From an uncultured Hyphomicrobiales bacterium (lineage in GTDB: Bacteria > Pseudomonadota > Alphaproteobacteria > Rhizobiales > Xanthobacteraceae), in assembly GCA_964449645.1 (NCBI GenBank), contig CAYVBN010000353.1:1-31967 (forward strand): DNA of 31,967 bases, given 5' to 3'. Below the pieces are notes generated by a model that did not search any database, was not told the origin of the DNA, and saw only the letters and a list, made by a program, of their open reading frames with translations. The translations under genes and the position numbers were made by a program. Position 1 is the first letter of the stretch, and every line of letters starts with the position of its first letter. Shown here piece by piece: positions 20,346-29,952 of this stretch.

Positions 20346-20463
20346 CTAGAGCACGTTCCGATTTGATCGAATCGGAGCGCGCTCCAGGACTTCGTATCAG
20401 GTCGCATTTTCCACGGCGAATTCCACAGCGAACCGGTTCCCGCTTCGCTGGAAAATGCTCTAA
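20346..20463. repeat. Two-hairpin palindromic repeat (copy 2), CTAG...CTA bounded
   Basis: CTAGAGCACGTTCCGAT...ATCGGAGCGCGCTCCA, then GCATTTTCC...GGAAAATGC TCTA. Homologous to 8084-8193, and overlaps the rlpA stop codon. Confidence 0.8.
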
Positions 20464-20834
20464 CCGACGATCTGCAACCTGACAGGCGCGAGACCGGAAA
20501 AGCCGAGCCTCCGCGCACCTGCAGGCGTGAGATCGATGACGCGGCCGCGAACGTAGGGACCGCGATCGTTGATCCGCACCACGACCGAACGGCCGTTCTT
20601 CTCGTTGGTGACGCGCACCCGGGTGCCGAACGGCAGCGTCTTATGGGCCGCAGTCAAGCCGCCCGGGCTTGCCCGCTCGCCGTTCGCCGTCTTCTCCCCC
20701 TTGTAGGCATACACCGACGCCACGCCGGTCATGGCGGAAGATCCTGTCGACCTCGCCTTGTGGCCCGCGAATGCGGACCCGCAACCGGCCATGACGAAGC
20801 ACAACGCGACTATCAGTTTTTTAGATCGAATCAT
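20460..20834 (-). CDS. rlpA: RlpA-family (DPBB) septal ring lytic transglycosylase-like protein, short form
   Basis: GVASVY, TANGE, LTAAHKTLPFGTRVRVTN and VVVRINDRGPYVRGRVIDL motifs. Confidence 0.9.
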   Translation of the reverse strand: MIRSKKLIVALCFVMAGCGSAFAGHKARSTGSSAMTGVASVYAYKGEKTANGERASPGGLTAAHKTLPFGTRVRVTNEKNGRSVVVRINDRGPYVRGRVIDLTPAGARRLGFSGLAPVRLQIVG

Positions 20835-21409
20835 TCCCTCTCGCCGAAGCGGAGCTTCGGCGCCCTTGGTTCGAGCTGAATTGTGGGATCGCGCGAGTCG
20901 CTACCCGTCCACACGCTTTCGCGTGGCGCGCGGAATGCCTGCGTAAATTGTCAGGAATTTGGCCGTTATATTGAATTATTGCGGTCAATGATGGAGCAAA
21001 TGAATGTAGAAGATGAGCAACTCAGCCGCATTTGAAAATCCGGCGCGGTACGCTCTTCTTCTTTATTCCTCGATGTGTTTTGTCGCACCAACGGATCGAG
21101 CCGAATCTTCGACAGAGATCTTTGTACCTGACCTAATCCCTGCGTGCAAAATGCCGATTGGCGGCCTTTCGTTTCGGCCGGAGATGCACAGGCATTACAG
21201 GAGGTGCAGCGCCGGTGTCGCGTCTGCGTTCACCGGCTGACCGACCTCGGCGCGCCCACGCGTCCGCGTCCTCGCCGGTCGCCGAACAACGCCGTGGCGA
21301 TCACATTCTGCCGGGACGAGGCCGGCGGCCGATCCCCTCGACATCGACGTTCGACAATCGGAACAGAGGTTTGCGCCGCATCGTGGATTTCCCACAGCAG
21401 CGCCGCGCC

Positions 21410-21438
21410 ATTGCGCTCGCGTGACCTCTTGGCTATAC
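21410..21438 (+). promoter_or_regulatory. Putative sigma70 promoter of the acpXL cluster
   Basis: ATTGCG-N17-CTATAC resembles the alphaproteobacterial CTTGAC-N17-CTATAT consensus, about 100 nt upstream of acpXL. Confidence 0.4.
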
Positions 21439-21538
21439 GAACGCGCACGATGAGACGGCGGCCGGCTCCGGGGACCGGCCGGGGATGCCAGCGCGATCCG
21501 GCGCGGCTCGAAAATCTCCATCCTTCAGAGAGTTGCCG

Positions 21539-21820
21539 ATGTCTGCGACCTTCGACACCGTGGCCAATATCATCGCCGAGACGTGCGATATCCCGCGCGA
21601 CACGATCAAGCCGGAGAGCCACGCGATCGACGATCTCGGCATCGACAGCCTCGACTTCCTTGATATCGCCTTCGCAATCGACAAGGCCTTCGGCATCAAG
21701 CTGCCGCTCGAGCAATGGACACAGGAAGTCAACGACGGCAAAGCGACGACCGAGCAGTACTTCGTTCTGAAAAACCTCTGCGCGCGCATCGACGAGCTTG
21801 TTGCGGCCAAGGGCGCGTGA
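21539..21820 (+). CDS. acpXL: Specialised acyl carrier protein AcpXL
   Basis: [20 protein letters not shown]...[50 protein letters not shown]. Confidence 0.95.
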
Positions 21821-21835
21821 GCTGACGCGGCTTGC

Positions 21836-22312
21836 ATGCGCATCGAGTATTTCCAGCTCATCGATCGCATCGCCGAAATCGACGTTGATGCCCGGCGCAT
21901 CCGCGCCATCGCGACCGTTCCGCAGACCAGCACGATTTTCGAGGGCCACTTCCCCGGCCATCCGTTGATGCCTGGCGTCCTGCTCATCGAGACGATGGCG
22001 CAGACGTCCGGCTGGCTGGTGATCGGGCTGACGCGGTTCGAGCGGATGCCGTTCCTTGCCGCCGTCAAGGAGGCGAAGTTCCGCCGCTTCGTCACGCCGG
22101 GCGAAGTGCTGTCGGTCGAGGCCGAGCTGGTGCACGACGGGTCCGGATTTGCGGTGACGCACGCCCGGATCGTCGCCAACGGAGAGAAGCCCGTTTGCGA
22201 AGCGGAAATCCGGCTGCGGGTCATGCCGTTTCCCAATCCGGACTTCCGTAGCGGCATGCTGGACTACGCCCGACGGCTGCAATTCCCGCTCGGAGCGACG
22301 GCCGATGGCTGA
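21836..22312 (+). CDS. fabZXL: 3-hydroxyacyl-ACP dehydratase of the VLCFA cluster
   Basis: FQLIDRI and FEGHFPGHPLMPGVLLIETMAQ motifs, in the position after acpXL. Confidence 0.9.
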   Translation: MRIEYFQLIDRIAEIDVDARRIRAIATVPQTSTIFEGHFPGHPLMPGVLLIETMAQTSGWLVIGLTRFERMPFLAAVKEAKFRRFVTPGEVLSVEAELVHDGSGFAVTHARIVANGEKPVCEAEIRLRVMPFPNPDFRSGMLDYARRLQFPLGATADG

Positions 22313-23498
22313 CATGGCACGCGAGGCTTGGATCACCGGCATCGGCATTCTGTCCTGCCTCGGCGAAGGGCCGGAGGCGCACTGGCAAGGGCTGATGGAC
22401 GGCAAGCCGCACGTCGACGTGGACACGTTCGCGCCGTGCATCGTCCATCCGCTGCCGACGGTCGATTTCGACAAGCAGATCCCCAAGAAGGGCGATCAGC
22501 GCCAGATGGAGCCCTGGCAGCGGATCGGTACCTATGCGGCCGGCCTCGCGCTCGACAGTGCCGGCGTCAAGGGCCAGGCCGAACTGCTCGCCCGCATGGA
22601 CATGATCGTCGCCGCCGGCGGCGGTGAGCGGGACGTGACGGTCGACGCGGCGATCCTCAGCGGGATGCCGAAGGCCGACAATCCGGACCGGTTCCTCAAC
22701 GAGCGGCTGATGAACGATCTGCGCCCGACGCTGTTCCTGGCGCAGCTTTCGAACCTGCTCGCCGGCAACATCTCGATCGTGCACGGCGTGACGGGCTCCT
22801 CGCGCACGTTCATGGGCGAGGAAGCCGCCGGCTTCGACGCCGTGCGCATCTCCCTCACGCGCATCCTCGCCGGCCAGAGCGACATCGCGCTCGTCGGCGG
22901 CGCTCACAACGGCGAGCGCAAGGACATGCAGATGCTCTACGAGTTCGGCGGGTTCAACCTGAAGGGCGCGTTCCGTCCGGTCTGGGAGCGCGCGCCGCAG
23001 GGCGGCTTTGCGCTCGGATCACTGGGCGCCTTCCTGGTGATCGAGGATCGCGCACATGCCGAGGCCCGCGGGGCGAAGCCGTACGCACGCCTCTGTTCGA
23101 TCGCGACCGAGCGGTCGCACCGTCAGCCGGGAGCGGTCACGGCCGCGCTGCAGAGCCTCTGGGAGAAGATCGCCGGACGGCTGCAGCCCGGACGATGCGC
23201 CATCATTTCCGGCGCGACGGGCGCCGAGCCCGCAACGACCGAGGAGCGGGATTTCCTGCGCCAGCATCCGGATATCCCGGTGCGCGCTACCGGCACGCTG
23301 CTCGGGCACGGACCGGAACCGCAATTCGCGATGAACATCGCCATTGCGGCGCTCGCGGTGAGCCGGGGTAAACTGTTCCCGCCGCAGGACGGCTCGGGGC
23401 TCGAGCAGCCGATGGATGGGCCGATCACCCAGGCCGTGGTGACAGGCGTGGGACATTGGCGCGGTGAAGGCATGGCCCTCGTCGAAGCCGTGCATTGA
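22305..23498 (+). CDS. fabF2XL: Beta-ketoacyl-ACP synthase-like protein lacking the catalytic Cys
   Basis: WITGIG, KKGDQRQMEPWQRIGTYAAGLAL and RPTLFLAQLSNLLAGNISI motifs. TFMGEEAAG stands where active synthases have TACASG. Confidence 0.88.
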   Translation: MADMAREAWITGIGILSCLGEGPEAHWQGLMDGKPHVDVDTFAPCIVHPLPTVDFDKQIPKKGDQRQMEPWQRIGTYAAGLALDSAGVKGQAELLARMDMIVAAGGGERDVTVDAAILSGMPKADNPDRFLNERLMNDLRPTLFLAQLSNLLAGNISIVHGVTGSSRTFMGEEAAGFDAVRISLTRILAGQSDIALVGGAHNGERKDMQMLYEFGGFNLKGAFRPVWERAPQGGFALGSLGAFLVIEDRAHAEARGAKPYARLCSIATERSHRQPGAVTAALQSLWEKIAGRLQPGRCAIISGATGAEPATTEERDFLRQHPDIPVRATGTLLGHGPEPQFAMNIAIAALAVSRGKLFPPQDGSGLEQPMDGPITQAVVTGVGHWRGEGMALVEAVH

Positions 23499-23509
23499 GG
23501 AGAACACCT

Positions 23510-24790
23510 ATGGCAGCGATGCGCGACAAGGCAGGCCGGCCCGTCGTCGCAGTGACCGGCATGGGCGTCGTCACGTCGCTCGGCGCCGGCAAGAGCGAGA
23601 ATTGGAACAGGCTCGTCGCCGGCCAATCCGGCATCCGCGCCATCACGCGTTTCCCCACCGACGGGCTGAAAACGCGCGTCGCTGGCACCATCGATTTCGT
23701 CGCTGTCGACCCGCTCGTGGCCCCGCAGCTCGCCGAGCGGCTGGCCGAGATCGCGATCGAAGAAGCGATCACGGAATCCGCGATCGACACGGCCGGCAGT
23801 TTTCCCGGACCGCTCTTTCTCGCGGTGGCCCCGATCGAGATCGAATGGCCACAGCGCGCCGAACTCGCCAAGGCGTCGGGATCGAACGAGGCCGTGACCT
23901 ACGACCACCTCATCCGCGCCGCCGGCGGCGGGCGCTTTCGCCCGTTTCACGACCGTTTCCTGTTCGGTTCGGTCGGCGACCACCTGGCCGACAAGTTTGG
24001 AACCCGCGGCACGCCCATTTCGCTCTCGACGGCGTGCGCCTCGGGCGCAAGCGCCATCCAGCTCGGGCTCGAGGCGATCCGCCGCGGCGAGGCGGATGCG
24101 GCGCTGTGCGTCGCGACCGACGGCTCGGTCAATCCCGAAAGCCTGGTGCGCTTTTCGCTCCTGTCGGCGCTCTCGACCCAGAATGATCCGCCGGAGGCGG
24201 CCCCCAAGCCGTTCGCCAAGAATCGCGACGGCTTCGTGATGGCCGAAGGCGCGGGCGCCCTCGTGCTGGAGAACTACGACAGCGCCAAGGCGCGCGGCGC
24301 GAAGATTCTCGGCATCATCGAGGGCTGCGGCGAGCTCGCCGACTCCTTCCACCGCACCCGCTCAAGCCCCGACGGAAAGCCGATCATCGGCTGCATGCGC
24401 AACGCGATCGCCGATGCGGGGCTCGAGCCCGACGCCATCGACTACATCAACGCACACGGGACCGGCACGCCCGAGAACGACAAGATGGAATGTCTCGGTG
24501 TCACGACCGTGTTCGGCGAGCGCATCAAGGACATCCCGATCTCCTCGAATAAATCGATGATCGGGCACACGCTCTCGGCCGCAGGCGCCGTCGAGGCGGT
24601 GATCTCGCTTCTCACTCTCGATCGTCAGCGCATTCCGCCGACCATCAACTACAAGGTCCCCGACCCCGCCATTCCGCTCGACGTCGTCCCGAACACCGCG
24701 CGCGACGCGCGCATCACCCACGCGATCTCCAACTCGTTCGGTTTCGGCGGCCAAAACGTCTCGCTCGTGATGGCGCGAGAGCCGGCCTGA
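23510..24790 (+). CDS. fabF1XL: Beta-ketoacyl-ACP synthase (active-site intact)
   Basis: ATG 23510 follows GAGGAG. STACASG, NAHGTGT, KSMIGHTL and SNSFGFGG motifs. Confidence 0.92.
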   Translation: MAAMRDKAGRPVVAVTGMGVVTSLGAGKSENWNRLVAGQSGIRAITRFPTDGLKTRVAGTIDFVAVDPLVAPQLAERLAEIAIEEAITESAIDTAGSFPGPLFLAVAPIEIEWPQRAELAKASGSNEAVTYDHLIRAAGGGRFRPFHDRFLFGSVGDHLADKFGTRGTPISLSTACASGASAIQLGLEAIRRGEADAALCVATDGSVNPESLVRFSLLSALSTQNDPPEAAPKPFAKNRDGFVMAEGAGALVLENYDSAKARGAKILGIIEGCGELADSFHRTRSSPDGKPIIGCMRNAIADAGLEPDAIDYINAHGTGTPENDKMECLGVTTVFGERIKDIPISSNKSMIGHTLSAAGAVEAVISLLTLDRQRIPPTINYKVPDPAIPLDVVPNTARDARITHAISNSFGFGGQNVSLVMAREPA

Positions 24791-25554
24791 TGACATCTGC
24801 TGCCGCTCGGCGCGTTCTGGTGACGGGCGGCGGACGCGGCCTCGGCACCGCCATCGTGCGGGCGCTGGCGCAAGCGGGTCACGATGTCACCTTCACGTAT
24901 CGCTCGGCCGCCGCGGATGCCGAGGCGCTGCTCGCGGAGCTCGGCGCGGCCTATCCGCGGCAGACCTTCGCGGCGCATAGCGTCGATCTCGCCGACAAAG
25001 CGGCGGTGGAAACCTTTGCGAAGGTGCTGGACAGCGAGACGCCCTACTCCGGTTTCGTGCACAACGCCGGGCAGTCCTACGACGCGCTCGCCATGATGAT
25101 GGACCAGGACAAGGCCGAGCAGGCGATGCAGGTGAACTTCTGGTCCTTCGCGCGGATCGCCAGCGTGCTCGTGCGGCCGATGATGCGCGCGCGCGACGGG
25201 CGGATCGCAGCGATCGGATCGGTCACCGCCCTGCAGGCCAACCAGGGCAATGCCGCCTACGCGGCCTCGAAATCCGCGCTTCTCGGCTATGTGCGCACGC
25301 TCGCGGTCGAAACGGCGCGCAGCGGCGTGACGGCCAACTACGTGGCGCCGGGCTTCATCGACACCGCCATGGTCGCGCCTTACGCAAAATATCGCGAGCA
25401 GATGGAAAGCCAGATCCCGGCGCGCCGCTTCGCCCGCCCGGACGAGATCGCCGGGGTCGTCGCCTTCCTGCTGTCGCCGCAGGCGACCTACGTCACCGGG
25501 TCGGTGTTGACCGTTGACGGCGGGCTTTCGGCAGCGATAGGCATCCATCGCTAA
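24790..25554 (+). CDS. SDR-family FabG-like 3-oxoacyl-ACP reductase
   Basis: TGGGRGLG, HNAG, S...YAASK, VAPGFIDT and TGSVLTVDGG motifs. TGATG coupling to fabF1XL. Confidence 0.88.
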   Translation: MTSAAARRVLVTGGGRGLGTAIVRALAQAGHDVTFTYRSAAADAEALLAELGAAYPRQTFAAHSVDLADKAAVETFAKVLDSETPYSGFVHNAGQSYDALAMMMDQDKAEQAMQVNFWSFARIASVLVRPMMRARDGRIAAIGSVTALQANQGNAAYAASKSALLGYVRTLAVETARSGVTANYVAPGFIDTAMVAPYAKYREQMESQIPARRFARPDEIAGVVAFLLSPQATYVTGSVLTVDGGLSAAIGIHR

Positions 25555-25586
25555 TCCCCGACAACGACGCCCGGACACACGATCTC

Positions 25587-26609
25587 ATGCGTGCGCTTAC
25601 CCTTGTCGCCGACCGGAAGCTCGAGTTGCGCGACGTCGAGCCGCCCCCGCCTCCCGGTCCCGGCGAGGTGCAGGTGCGCGTCAAGGCCGTGGCTCTCAAC
25701 CACATCGACGTATGGGGTTTCCGCGGCATGGCGTTCGCGAAGCGCAAGCTGCCGCTCGTGGTCGGCGCGGAAGCCGCCGGCGAAATCGCCGCGCTCGGTC
25801 CCGGCGTCGACGGCTTCGCCCCCGGGGATCCGGTCGTGATGTACGGCGCCATGACCTGCGCGACCTGCAAGGCCTGCCGCGAAGGCCGCGACAATCTGTG
25901 CGAGAACGTCCAAGGCATCATGGGCTTCCACATCGACGGCTTCGCGCGCGACCTGCTCAATCTGCCGGCGCGGCTGACGATCCCGGTGCCCAAGGGCGTC
26001 GCGCTTCGCGATGCCGCGTGCGCGCCGATCGCGTTTTCGACGGTCGAGCACATGCTGTTCGACAATGCCAAGCTCCAGCCCGGCGAGACGGTCCTGGTGC
26101 ATGCCGGCGGCTCCGGCATCGGCACCGCCGCGATCCGCATGGCCAAGGCGATCGGCTGCACCGTCATCACGACGGTGGGCGACGACACCAAGGCCGAGAA
26201 GGCGAAGGCGCTCGGGGCCGATCACGTGATCAACTACCGGACCGACCGGTTCGAGCACCTGGTGCGGAAGATCACTGCCAAGAAGGGCGTCGACGTCGTG
26301 TTCGAGCACGTCGGGGCCGAGACGTTCAACGGCTCGCTTCTGTCGCTCAAGCGCGGCGGCCGGCTCGTCACCTGCGGATCGACCTCGGGCCCGACAACGA
26401 CCATCAACCTGATGCAGCTCTTCCAGCAACAGTACAAGATCTTCGGCTCGTTCGGCGCCTCAATGCGCAACATTCGCGACGCGCTCGCCAAGATGGCGGA
26501 CGGCATCCTTCCGGTGATCGACACGGAAGTCGATCTGGCCGATCTCGAGCAGGGTCTCGCGCGTCTCGAGAGCCGCCAGGTGTTCGGCAAGGTGATCGTG
26601 CGGTTCTGA
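25587..26609 (+). CDS. adhA2XL: Zn-binding MDR-family oxidoreductase of the VLCFA cluster
   Basis: CATCKAC...NLC structural Zn site and HAGGSGIG nucleotide-binding loop, in the syntenic position before lpxXL. Confidence 0.85.
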   Translation: MRALTLVADRKLELRDVEPPPPPGPGEVQVRVKAVALNHIDVWGFRGMAFAKRKLPLVVGAEAAGEIAALGPGVDGFAPGDPVVMYGAMTCATCKACREGRDNLCENVQGIMGFHIDGFARDLLNLPARLTIPVPKGVALRDAACAPIAFSTVEHMLFDNAKLQPGETVLVHAGGSGIGTAAIRMAKAIGCTVITTVGDDTKAEKAKALGADHVINYRTDRFEHLVRKITAKKGVDVVFEHVGAETFNGSLLSLKRGGRLVTCGSTSGPTTTINLMQLFQQQYKIFGSFGASMRNIRDALAKMADGILPVIDTEVDLADLEQGLARLESRQVFGKVIVRF

Positions 26610-26621
26610 CGAGCGGCAACG

Positions 26622-27560
26622 ATGCGCATGAGCTTCAAGCGGTTTGCGCGGCGACTCGCCGCCGCAACCAAGCCGGCGGTGGACGCGGCGGCCGGACGCC
26701 TCGCCGTCGGGCTGCTCGCGGTGATCCGCCGGTTCAAGCGCGAACGGATCAGCGACATTCTCGGCGCCGGGATGCGCAGGATCGGTCCGTGGCTGCCGGA
26801 GCATCGGATTGGCCGCGCCAATCTCGCGGCCGCCTTCCCGCAGATGCCGCCGGAGGAGATCGAGCGGATTCTTGCCGGCGTCTGGGACAACCTCGGGCGT
26901 CTTGCCGCCGAGTTCGCCTTTCTCGACCGGCTGCGCATCCCCGAGGTCCCGGACCAGCCCGCCGCCGTGGCGGACATCACCTACGATCGCGCCACCTACG
27001 ACCGCTTCCTGCGGCTACGCTCCGAACGCAAGCCGGCGCTCGTCTTCGCCGCCCATCTCGCCAATTGGGAGCTTCCGGCGCTCGTCGCCGGCGTGCACGG
27101 GCTCGATGCAGTCGTGCTCTATCGCCGCCCCAATCTCGGCGCGGTGGCCGATGCGGTGATGCAGATCCGGCAGACCAGCATGGTGCAGATGGTGCCGACG
27201 AGCCTCTCGGCGCCGCTGAAGCTGGCACGTGCGCTCGAGGCCGGCCGCCTCGCCGCAATGCTCGTCGACCAGCATTACGTGAAAGGCGTCGAGGTCACGT
27301 TCTTTGGCCGTCGCTGTCTCGCCAATCCGCTGATCGCCGCGCTCGCCCGGCAGATCGAATGCCCGATCTACGGCACGCGCGTCGTCCGGCTGCCCGGCCA
27401 CCGCTTTCGCGCGGAGATCAGCGAGGCCATCCCGCCGGTGCGCGACGCCGAGGGCCGCATCGACGTGCAAGGCACAATGCAGGCGATCACTTCGGTGATC
27501 GAGGGCTGGGTGCGCGAGCACCCCGAGCAATGGCTGTGGCTGCACCGGCGCTGGCGCTGA
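26622..27560 (+). CDS. lpxXL: Lipid A very-long-chain fatty acyltransferase
   Basis: HLANWE, YRRPN, MLVDQ and PEQWLWLHRRWR motifs (LpxL family), at the end of the acpXL cluster. Confidence 0.9.
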   Translation: MRMSFKRFARRLAAATKPAVDAAAGRLAVGLLAVIRRFKRERISDILGAGMRRIGPWLPEHRIGRANLAAAFPQMPPEEIERILAGVWDNLGRLAAEFAFLDRLRIPEVPDQPAAVADITYDRATYDRFLRLRSERKPALVFAAHLANWELPALVAGVHGLDAVVLYRRPNLGAVADAVMQIRQTSMVQMVPTSLSAPLKLARALEAGRLAAMLVDQHYVKGVEVTFFGRRCLANPLIAALARQIECPIYGTRVVRLPGHRFRAEISEAIPPVRDAEGRIDVQGTMQAITSVIEGWVREHPEQWLWLHRRWR

Positions 27561-27598
27561 TGCGCGCGTCCGGCGGACTCGCCGAAAGCGAACATCGA

Positions 27599-28360
27599 TC
27601 AGCCCGCCTCCCGATTCCGCGCCGTCCAGGCCTCCATCAGGTCGACCGGAAACGGAAACACGATGGTCGAGCTGCGCTCCCCCGCAATGTCGAACAGCGT
27701 TGCGAGATAGCGGAGCTGCATCGCCTGCGGCACCGGCGCGAGAATGCGGGCGGCATCGAGCAGCTTCTGTGCGGCCTGCTGTTCACCCTCTGCGTTGATG
27801 ATCTTGGCGCGGCGTGAGCGCTCGGCTTCGGCCTGACGTGCGATCGCCCGGACCATGCTCTCGTCGAGATCGATGCGCTTGATCTCGACATTCGAGACCT
27901 TGATGCCCCAGCCTTCGGTCTGCTTATCGAGCACGTCCTGGATGTCGGCGTTGAGTTTGTCCCGTTCAGCCAGCATCTGGTCGAGATCGTGTTTGCCCAG
28001 GACCCAGCGCAGGGTAGTCTGCGCGAGCTGGCTCGTTGCCATCAGATAATTGTTGACCTGAATGATCGCCCGCTCGGCATCGACGACGCGAAAATAAATC
28101 ACGGCGTTCACCTTGACGGAAACGTTGTCACGCGAAATCACGTCCTGGGGCGGCACCTCGTCGACGACGACCCGAAGATCGACGCGCACCATCTGCTGCA
28201 CGAAGGGCACGAGCAGAAACAATCCCGGCCCCTTCGTTCCGGTGTAGCGCCCCAGCGTGAACACGACCCCGCGTTCGTATTCGCGCAGAATGCGTATGCT
28301 CGAAAATAAAATGACCGACAGGAAAACGACTATGATGGCGATGACCGCGGCAGAGAACAT
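27599..28360 (-). CDS. SPFH/band-7 (slipin/stomatin-like) membrane protein
   Basis: ATG 28360 with a [33 protein letters not shown] and [18 protein letters not shown] motifs. Confidence 0.93.
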
Positions 28361-28389
28361 GGTGTTCCTCCTTCTCGGGAACGGGAGCG

Positions 28390-29781
28390 CTAGGCCGCCT
28401 CGACGATGAGGACGAGACCCTCGCGATCGACGACTTTGATGCGGCTGCCGGACTGCAGCACCCGAGCGGCTCGCGCGCGCCAAATCTCCCCGTTGACCCG
28501 CACCCGCCCCTCTTTGTCCTGCCAGGACACGGTTTCACCTTCGCTGCCGATCAGCCCCTCCTCGCCGGTGATGACGGCCCGCTTGCGCGATCGGAGCAGC
28601 ATCGAAAGCACCAGCACGAAGAAGCCACCGATCACGACGGCAACTCCCATGGCGACCAGCGGGGAAAGCGCGAAGCCGGGCACGCCCGCGGGAAACATCA
28701 TGATTGCGCCGATGACGAACGCCGCGATGCCGGCGAGCCCGACGAGTCCCAAGGCCCCGATGTGGACTTCGGCGACCATAAGTCCGATGCCGAGAAGAAC
28801 GAGCGCCACGCCCGCATAGTTAATGGGAAGCAGATTGAGCGCGTAAAGCGCCACGATCAGGCTGATGGCGCCGACCAGACCCGGCGCGATCATGCCCGGG
28901 CTGAAAAACTCGAAGATCAACCCGAACACGCCGACCGTCAGGAGAATGAAAGCGATGTTCGGCGCGGTGATGACGGCGAGGAATTCAGTCCGCCAGTCGG
29001 GCGCTTGCGACACGACGTCGAGCCCGGCCGTCGCCAGCCGTTCAGGCTTGCCGCCCACCACGACGGTGCGTCCGTCGATCTTGCGGAGAAGATCCGGAAT
29101 ATCGTCGGCAATGACGTCGACGACATTGAGCTTGAGGGCTTCCGGAGCCGGAACGCTCGCGGCGTTGCGCACGGCTTCCGCCGCCCAGTCGGCGTTGCGA
29201 TGGTGGAGGTTCGCCAGCCCGCGGATATACGCCACGGCGTCGTTGAGGATCTTGCGCGACTCGGCGTCAGCGGGCTCGTTCTGACCTTTCGTCTGTCCGG
29301 AATGTTCGCTCGGCTTCCCATTCGGGAACAGAGGACTTCCGCCCAACTGCACGGGCGTGGCCGCGCCGATATTGGTGCCCGGCGCCATCGCGGCGATCGC
29401 GCTCGCATAGGCGATATATGTTCCGGCGCTTGCCGCGCGCGCGCCGTTCGGCGCCACATAGGTCGCAACCGGGACCGGAGATGCCAGAATCGCGGTGATG
29501 ATCCTGCGCATCGAGGTGTCGAGCCCGCCCGGCGTATTCATCCGCAGGATCACGAGCCCGACCTCGCCCGGCTTCACCGTCCGGAGCTCGCGCTCGACAT
29601 AATCGGCAACAGCCGGCCCGATCGCGCCGTCGATTGTGAGCACAACGGCGCGTTCGGCCGCGGCCGCCGGAGTCGAAAGGACCGACAGCGCAGCGATCCC
29701 CGCAATCAGCAGTTCGACGGCGCGCCGGCGCAGTGAGTCACGAAACCGAGAACCGGTCACAGGGCTCGGCGGCAAATGCAT
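28390..29781 (-). CDS. nfeD: Long-form NfeD membrane-bound serine protease
   Basis: [41 protein letters not shown] and a C-terminal OB domain (GEIWRA). Start is uncertain; ATG 29781 chosen. Confidence 0.9.
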
Positions 29782-29952
29782 GGGCCGCCTCGTTTGTGCG
29801 ATTATCTGTTCGCATCTAAGGTCGAGGATGCAACTTTGCAACCCTCGTTGGATCCGGCGAGGGTTGTGCGCGTTTCGGCCACAGGTGTCGGTTGTCTGGA
29901 GAAACAGCCGATGGGGCGAGAACCCGGCCCGCAATCGGCGAATTGCCGCACT

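Follow-up and report, generated by a model that had tools for sequence, protein, structure and literature searches.

Gene content and layout of the acpXL-lpxXL cluster

The window analysed here, 31,967 nucleotides of contig CAYVBN010000353.1 (assembly GCA_964449645.1) from an uncultured Hyphomicrobiales bacterium, carried at positions 21539-27560 a gene cluster for lipid A's fatty acid of very long chain (VLCFA) and, within it, a gene for a FabG-like short-chain dehydrogenase/reductase (SDR), referred to below as SDR_XL. Seven intact open reading frames (ORFs) were found on the plus strand in one tight co-directional block (Table 1). AcpXL, the FabF2XL/FabF1XL pair and LpxXL all scored over their NCBIfam cut-offs, and together with the common direction of the genes this placed the block among the acpXL-lpxXL clusters. 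All six canonical genes of the known clusters were present in the canonical order, with SDR_XL as one gene more than in the six- or five-gene clusters that have been studied by experiment. The start of acpXL was set at 21539 because the NF005079 profile begins at residue 19 of a longer ORF that starts at 21485, and the AcpXL of the window was 90-97% identical to that of relatives. The closest relatives of the window were Rhodoplanes-like Xanthobacteraceae metagenome-assembled genomes (MAGs). Overall, the window holds a well-conserved seven-gene VLCFA operon of a Rhodoplanes-like MAG, and its annotation is routine.

The successive junctions from acpXL to lpxXL were a gap of 15 nt, overlaps of 8 nt, 4 nt and 1 nt, and gaps of 32 nt and 12 nt. 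The stop codon TGA of fabF1XL (24788-24790) and the start codon ATG of SDR_XL (24790-24792) had one base in common, forming TGATG; the junction reads GGCCTGATGACA and the shared base is located in CCTGATGACA. A terminator scan of 20800-27900 produced no terminator-like site, and a promoter scan of the cluster detected no promoter. The original prediction of an intact SDR with TGxxxGxG and YxxxK motifs, located between fabF1XL and adhA2XL with a TGATG overlap, was confirmed in every detail. The overlap also supports the proposed translational coupling of the FabG-like SDR to the gene of the beta-ketoacyl-acyl carrier protein (ACP) synthase (KS).

Table 1. Genes of the VLCFA cluster and its flanks, with positions in the window.
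Gene	Position	Strand	Predicted product	Profile match
acpXL	21539..21820	+	Dedicated acyl carrier protein, 93 aa	NF005079, 182.6 bits (cut-off 83)
fabZXL	21836..22312	+	3-hydroxyacyl-ACP dehydratase paralog	Pfam FabA, 3.4e-21
fabF2XL	22305..23498	+	KS-like, chain-length-factor-like	NF005084, 596.9 bits (cut-off 320)
fabF1XL	23495..24790	+	Condensing beta-ketoacyl-ACP synthase	NF005076, 755.3 bits (cut-off 629); both KS domains
SDR_XL	24790..25554	+	FabG-like reductase, 254 aa	adh_short_C2 (PF13561), 7.6e-50
'adhA2XL'	25587..26609	+	Medium-chain dehydrogenase/reductase (MDR), candidate enoyl reductase	ADH_N plus ADH_zinc_N
lpxXL	26622..27560	+	Lipid A VLCFA acyltransferase	NF005120, 383.7 bits (cut-off 273); Pfam Lip_A_acyltrans
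Upstream flank	20460..20834	-	RlpA-like DPBB lytic-transglycosylase-domain gene	
Downstream flank	27599..28483 and 28390..29934	-, -	SPFH/Band 7 plus NfeD membrane-protein pair	

Inspection of the other cluster proteins showed that FabF2XL has EEAAG opposite the active-site TACASG of FabF1XL and ATGAEP opposite AHGTGTP, and is without the nucleophilic Cys and without one His; judged by these residues, it looks like a chain-length-factor (CLF) partner of a KS. The MDR AdhA2XL reads LNHID and GAE where zinc-dependent alcohol dehydrogenases read C-H-x-D and GHE. The Cys and His of the catalytic zinc are absent, the four-Cys structural site is retained, and the neighbours of AdhA2XL among the NCBIfam family models were quinone, acryloyl-CoA and crotonyl-CoA reductases, which makes it a plausible candidate for an enoyl reductase (ER). 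FabZXL scored 97 bits with the FabZ models, under their cut-offs. Together with the ketoreductase (KR) candidate SDR_XL, the cluster thus plausibly holds candidates for an ACP, a KS/CLF pair, a KR, a dehydratase (DH), an ER and an acyltransferase. The complete private elongation cycle that had been proposed for the cluster stands to the extent that candidates for KS, KR, DH and ER are encoded, and as an overall reading it is plausible.

Sequence, fold and family of SDR_XL

SDR_XL showed the Rossmann motif T12-G-G-G-R-G-L-G19 and the active site Y157-A-A-S-K161. In 45 SDR_XL orthologs N116, Y157 and K161 were invariant and S144 was conserved in at least 90%. The TGxxxGxG motif, the N-S-Y-K tetrad and the match to PF13561 identified it as a classical SDR, and its top NCBIfam match was TIGR01830 (3-oxoacyl-ACP reductase) with 202.6 bits, under the cut-off of 297.75. 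In an alignment of nine sequences the residues of the NADPH type were found in 8/9 sequences at R16 and in 8/9 at R38. The GGGRGLG loop and the Y-R-S after beta-2 of SDR_XL are likewise of the NADP(H) type and match the TYRS of PDB 2nm0, an entry deposited as a probable 3-oxoacyl-ACP reductase which was also the best PDB profile match of SDR_XL. The top matches of this profile search were nearly all 3-oxoacyl-ACP reductases, followed closely by acetoacetyl-CoA reductases. Basic residues were present at position 135 (R/K) in 9/9 sequences and at 177 or 178 (R/K) in 9/9; these positions align with R129 and R172 of Escherichia coli FabG, which we take to be its ACP-docking residues under that numbering.

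The AlphaFold2 model of SDR_XL had a predicted local distance difference test score (pLDDT) of 89.8. Foldseek comparison of the model with FabG, PhaB and MabA produced template modelling (TM) scores of about 0.81-0.87 at 29-40% identity, which agrees with a FabG-type fold, and the top match was 4k6f, a putative acetoacetyl-CoA reductase. Judged by sequence and modelled fold, SDR_XL belongs among the NADPH-type beta-ketoacyl-thioester reductases (FabG, MabA, PhaB).

A separate FabG over the TIGR01830 cut-off (314-327 bits) was found in each of five SDR_XL-bearing relatives. No FabG over this cut-off was found in the window's own MAG (G000), an absence attributed to its 93%-complete assembly of 748 contigs; the same-genus genome G001 has one, and the absence in G000 is probably an assembly gap. 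The best TIGR01830 match in G000 (L089 267-992) was a protein 32% identical to SDR_XL, which from its sequence reads as a PhaB-type acetoacetyl-CoA reductase.

The 4k6f match bears on a reading in which SDR_XL acts as an acetoacetyl-CoA/ACP reductase and makes the 3-hydroxybutyryl donor for the tertiary substituent of the VLCFA (3-hydroxybutyrate, 3-methoxybutyrate or 3-O-acetylbutyrate). We consider this very improbable. SDR-less rhizobia carry 3-hydroxybutyrate on their VLCFA, the apparent PhaB-like protein already gives the genome a separate candidate for the reaction, and the tightest linkage of SDR_XL is with the KS gene rather than with lpxXL or another acyltransferase. Besides the 4k6f match, this reading is favoured by the VLCFA of Methylobacterium extorquens, which carries 3-O-acetylbutyrate as an ester in stoichiometric amount (PMC10052234).

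Distribution and evolution of SDR_XL

FabF2XL, counted over its family cut-off, was found in 97 of 401 genomes drawn evenly from the order of the window, and an SDR_XL ortholog was found in 46 genomes, all within those 97. Clusters were retrieved from nearly all FabF2XL-bearing genomes of the order and annotated with the window proteins. Outside the order, FabF2XL was found in 15 of 399 sampled alphaproteobacterial genomes; outside Alphaproteobacteria it was not found in a 401-genome sample of the phylum. Orthologs of SDR_XL (43-82% identity) occupied the same slot after fabF1XL in 46/97 clusters of the order and in 10/15 clusters from other orders. Whole-genome search of 40 relatives showed nine with a match at E ≤1e-70 and 59-82% identity and none in the others at 1e-40; eight of these relatives' loci were retrieved, and SDR_XL lay between fabF1XL and the MDR of the acpXL cluster in 8/8. 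A scan of one genome per GTDB species with a profile of these proteins gave 270 confirmed relatives; as far as the contigs reach, the best 80 of the 270 all had the gene in that slot. In the eight relative loci, these 80 loci and the survey loci SDR_XL was located immediately 3' of fabF1XL, overlapping it or behind a short gap.

The SDR_XL-bearing clusters of the order came from at least 13 GTDB families, and in total the slot was kept over at least 20 GTDB families of several orders. Named carriers were Rhodoplanes (several species), Astrobacterium, Xanthobacter, Azorhizobium oxalatiphilum (L067, with a seven-gene layout matching that of the window), Aquabacter, Methylobacterium (many), Microvirga, Bosea, Phreatobacter, Microbaculum, Tepidamorphus and Undibacter. 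A family-level search aimed at Methylobacterium (Methylorubrum) extorquens found SDR_XL in 42 of 101 genomes. Presence differed even inside genera (g47 2/3 genomes, g51 2/3 and g87 1/3), and in the SDR_XL-less members of these three genera the distance from fabF1XL to the MDR was 31-144 nt. In family f28, which holds clusters of the Mesorhizobium type, SDR_XL was absent in 11/11.

The SDR_XL-less clusters of the order included 34 of the classic six-gene type. Another seven were five-gene clusters that also had no MDR and came from one genus with 7-9 Mb genomes, a layout in agreement with the description for Bradyrhizobium (PMC5613085). Eight had no fabZXL; these were the Mesorhizobium type (PMC7663294) together with one 1.5-Mb genome. 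Two more were broken by contig ends. Published acpXL clusters have six genes in Rhizobium, Sinorhizobium, Agrobacterium and Brucella and five in Bradyrhizobium and Mesorhizobium; for Azorhizobium caulinodans, the statement that PMC11901934 quotes from Choma et al. 2017 is of 'up to seven ORFs'. The SDR is extra, as the original prediction had it, only in comparison with Rhizobiaceae/Brucella- and Bradyrhizobium-type clusters, and the rarity that this implied was not borne out by the counts. Its view of the SDR as an unusual insertion gave way to orthologs that are widespread in the same slot and form one clade mirroring the KS tree. The survey of acpXL clusters that it had proposed as a check showed that about half carry the SDR, and with a seven-ORF Azorhizobium cluster on record this comes near to the routine presence in described clusters that it had named as speaking against it.

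Variation in the layout of the clusters was also observed. The other-order clusters L206-L218 mostly had lpxXL directly upstream of acpXL and ended with SDR-adhXL. In genus g50 (L126-L141, including the Phreatobacter MAG L053) adhXL and lpxXL were inverted and upstream of acpXL, and SDR_XL was the last gene of acpXL-fabZXL-fabF2XL-fabF1XL-SDR, 9-12 nt behind fabF1XL. The gap between SDR and adhXL was 360-2316 nt in L157, L158, L164, L166, L168, L059, L063 and L072, all from the family with Methylobacterium and Microvirga, and less than 100 nt elsewhere. Three small ORFs (50, 125 and 104 aa), none of which matched a Pfam family, followed the SDR in L202. A second fabF2XL-fabF1XL pair was found in some clusters (L142, L144, L147 and L156 of one f25 genus, L143, L152 and L208), and the same loci (L142-L144, L147, L152, L156 and L208) had a second, unrelated SDR, 30-34% identical to SDR_XL and divergently transcribed 0.7-0.85 kb upstream of acpXL; in L152 SDR_XL was missing, although both the upstream SDR and the second KS pair were present. 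Two SDR_XL matches were located on separate contigs of Methylobacterium hispanicum (G425, C11:54119-54862 and C13:130279-131028) and may represent a second copy of the VLCFA cluster; two acpXL copies are described for Xanthobacter sp. SoF1 in an EFSA dossier (PMC13746265). Finally, fabF2XL and fabF1XL of L219 (G650:C3) matched only as several short pieces with one in-frame TGA, and this cluster looks to be decaying.

An unrooted KS tree was built from FabF2XL and FabF1XL of 90 clusters, and an unrooted SDR tree from 40 SDR_XL rows with FabG and PhaB-like sequences. The 40 SDR_XL sequences formed one clade with 100% support in the Shimodaira-Hasegawa-like approximate likelihood-ratio test (SH-aLRT) and a branch length of 0.62, apart from the housekeeping FabG and from the PhaB-like protein. 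Housekeeping FabG and SDR_XL have in common the fold, the tetrad, the NADPH-type motifs and PGF(I/V)DT, and probably also basic residues at the presumed ACP-docking positions; unlike FabG, SDR_XL remains under the TIGR01830 cut-off, forms its own clade and coexists with a true FabG in the five relatives mentioned above. The subgroups of SDR_XL agreed with the KS tree (f20+f36+f24-g136; f9+f24-g51; f25+f34+f52), and f48, f23, f47 and f60 were each separate in both trees. The ratio of nonsynonymous to synonymous substitution rates (dN/dS) of SDR_XL was 0.035-0.155 in eight close pairs, with the KS genes in the same range; by this sequence measure SDR_XL, where kept, is under normal purifying selection.

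Mapped on the KS tree, the presence of SDR_XL required at least 13 changes, 11 of them forced by well-supported branches. Its single clade, which mirrors the KS tree, gives SDR_XL the look of an old component with repeated losses, and its occurrence in distant orders supports loss rather than gain. The simplest reading is that SDR_XL arose once, was inherited vertically along with the cluster and was lost many times, and the seven-gene form is probably older than the SDR_XL-less forms.

The same observations bear on the proposal that SDR_XL is a passenger without a role in VLCFA synthesis, carried along with the operon. Its dispensability in many lineages, and a FabG-model score that many unrelated SDR paralogs equal or exceed, would agree with such a neighbour. 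That a passenger should hold the same slot over this range of families and orders, have 46/46 of its whole-genome matches in the order sample within FabF2XL-bearing genomes and lie inside the cluster wherever the surrounding DNA was read is hardly credible, all the more as its groups parallel the ones seen for the KS genes, with equally strong purifying selection.

Possible role of SDR_XL in VLCFA elongation

We favour, with some reserve, the explanation that SDR_XL serves as a dedicated 3-oxoacyl-AcpXL reductase, with FabG taking its place in the lineages that lost it. The functional argument for it comes mainly from genomic context. SDR_XL would use NADPH to reduce the beta-keto group of the AcpXL-bound intermediates after every condensation by FabF1XL/FabF2XL, FabZXL would remove water from the product, and reduction of the enoyl intermediate would fall to the zinc-less MDR. 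The seven-gene cluster would in this way be a self-contained type II elongation module, from which the finished (omega-1)-hydroxy VLCFA would be passed to LpxXL. The housekeeping FabG would be able to carry out the chemistry of SDR_XL, and this redundancy would explain both the repeated loss of SDR_XL and the textbook six- and five-gene clusters that have none. That 3-oxoacyl-AcpXL is the substrate, that FabG and SDR_XL are redundant and that the change was a loss and not a gain is what we infer from the observations.

Several points weigh against this explanation. SDR_XL did not reach the equivalog score of the FabG model TIGR01830, and its score is reached by many unrelated SDR paralogs encoded alongside it in these genomes; sequence by itself therefore does not mark it as a KR, and the TIGR01830 score was dropped as an argument for its specificity. 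Its fold is fitted by acetoacetyl-CoA reductases as well as by FabG. Loss rather than gain is a deduction from unrooted trees, and since FabF2XL was not found outside Alphaproteobacteria in the sample there is no remoter outgroup to root them. SDR-less Rhizobium, Agrobacterium and Bradyrhizobium make (omega-1)-OH VLCFAs (PMC11901934, PMC5613085), and SDR_XL is therefore not generally needed for the pathway. In addition, free-living Azorhizobium was reported without 27-OH-28:0 (PMC5644692, PMC11901934), and the Azorhizobium cluster seen here, that of A. oxalatiphilum, carries SDR_XL.

In an even-chain VLCFA the (omega-1) carbon is the beta-carbon of the first condensation product, so that the hydroxyl would be expected to come from a beta-ketoacyl reductase. 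This speaks for a role of SDR_XL specific to the omega-1 position, which we nevertheless regard as rather unlikely: either it would reduce only acetoacetyl-AcpXL, with the (R)-3-hydroxybutyryl-AcpXL escaping dehydration and becoming the later (omega-1)-hydroxyl, or, once the chain is complete, it would interconvert its (omega-1)-oxo and (omega-1)-hydroxy forms. The 27-OH and 27-oxo forms are both natural (PMC5644692), the equally good fit to acetoacetyl-CoA reductases would suit a first-cycle enzyme, and the NADPH-type motif suggests reduction, not oxidation. The hydroxylated VLCFAs made by SDR-less clusters (PMC11901934, PMC5613085) show, however, that no special enzyme is needed. Also on this side, oxo VLCFA forms were reported from Phyllobacterium (PMC5644692), and M. 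extorquens has ordinary 26:0(25-OH) and 28:0(27-OH) (PMC10052234), with SDR_XL seen in other Methylobacterium species. The nearest solved relatives of SDR_XL work on thioester-proximal, not distal, keto groups, and the present analysis gave no support to an altered VLCFA resulting from an omega-1 redox state set by SDR_XL. Chemically this role overlaps with that of the dedicated 3-oxoacyl-AcpXL reductase, and a KR for all cycles and a KR for the first cycle only are inseparable here. A wider proposal, decidedly unlikely in our estimate, is that SDR_XL installs the (omega-1)-hydroxyl via the undehydrated primer, that the seven-gene cluster is ancestral and self-sufficient and that the six- and five-gene forms are reduced and borrow FabG; if true, it would offer direct access to the question of where the omega-1 hydroxyl comes from.

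A dedicated 3-oxoacyl-AcpXL reductase would have a parallel in MabA (FabG1) of mycobacterial type II fatty acid synthesis (FAS-II), which together with AcpM and KasA/KasB is likewise a FabG paralog for very long chains with a special ACP and dedicated KS. MabA entries were the most identical structural matches of SDR_XL (39-40%, TM 0.80-0.81). MabA, however, is essential, and its gene accompanies that of InhA, not KS genes. Many lineages can dispense with SDR_XL, which would be paired with an ER of the MDR and not of the SDR type. Other cluster-encoded FabG-like KRs are FabG3 of xanthomonadin synthesis (PMC6859482), CylG (PDB 9cly), FlxB (NF053542) and NodG (NF009547), from specialised type II clusters resembling FAS or polyketide synthase (PKS) systems, with their own ACP and KS. 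CylG, FlxB and NodG were among the matches of SDR_XL; the four differ from it in orthogroup and product, and the model scores were under the cut-offs.

The searched literature gave nothing specific on acpXL clusters with a named fabG or SDR. The seven-gene variant has already been recorded, and special lipid clusters with a FabG paralog of their own are well known; the comparative point is modest and concerns no new kind of system. What is absent from the searchable papers is the frequency of SDR_XL, its spread to other orders and the resemblance of the model-organism clusters to a reduced state.

Lipid A that carries a VLCFA makes the outer membrane stiffer in rhizobia, in Brucella and Bartonella and in many Alphaproteobacteria that live free, and is relevant to symbiosis and chronic infection. 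The model of the pathway was derived from a few Rhizobiaceae, in which, to our knowledge, no enzyme has been assigned to the ketoreduction step. Genera g47, g51 and g87 provide natural pairs with and without SDR_XL that bear on the substitution by FabG. Overall, about half of the sampled clusters encode their own FabG-like reductase, which gives the ketoreduction step a concrete candidate.

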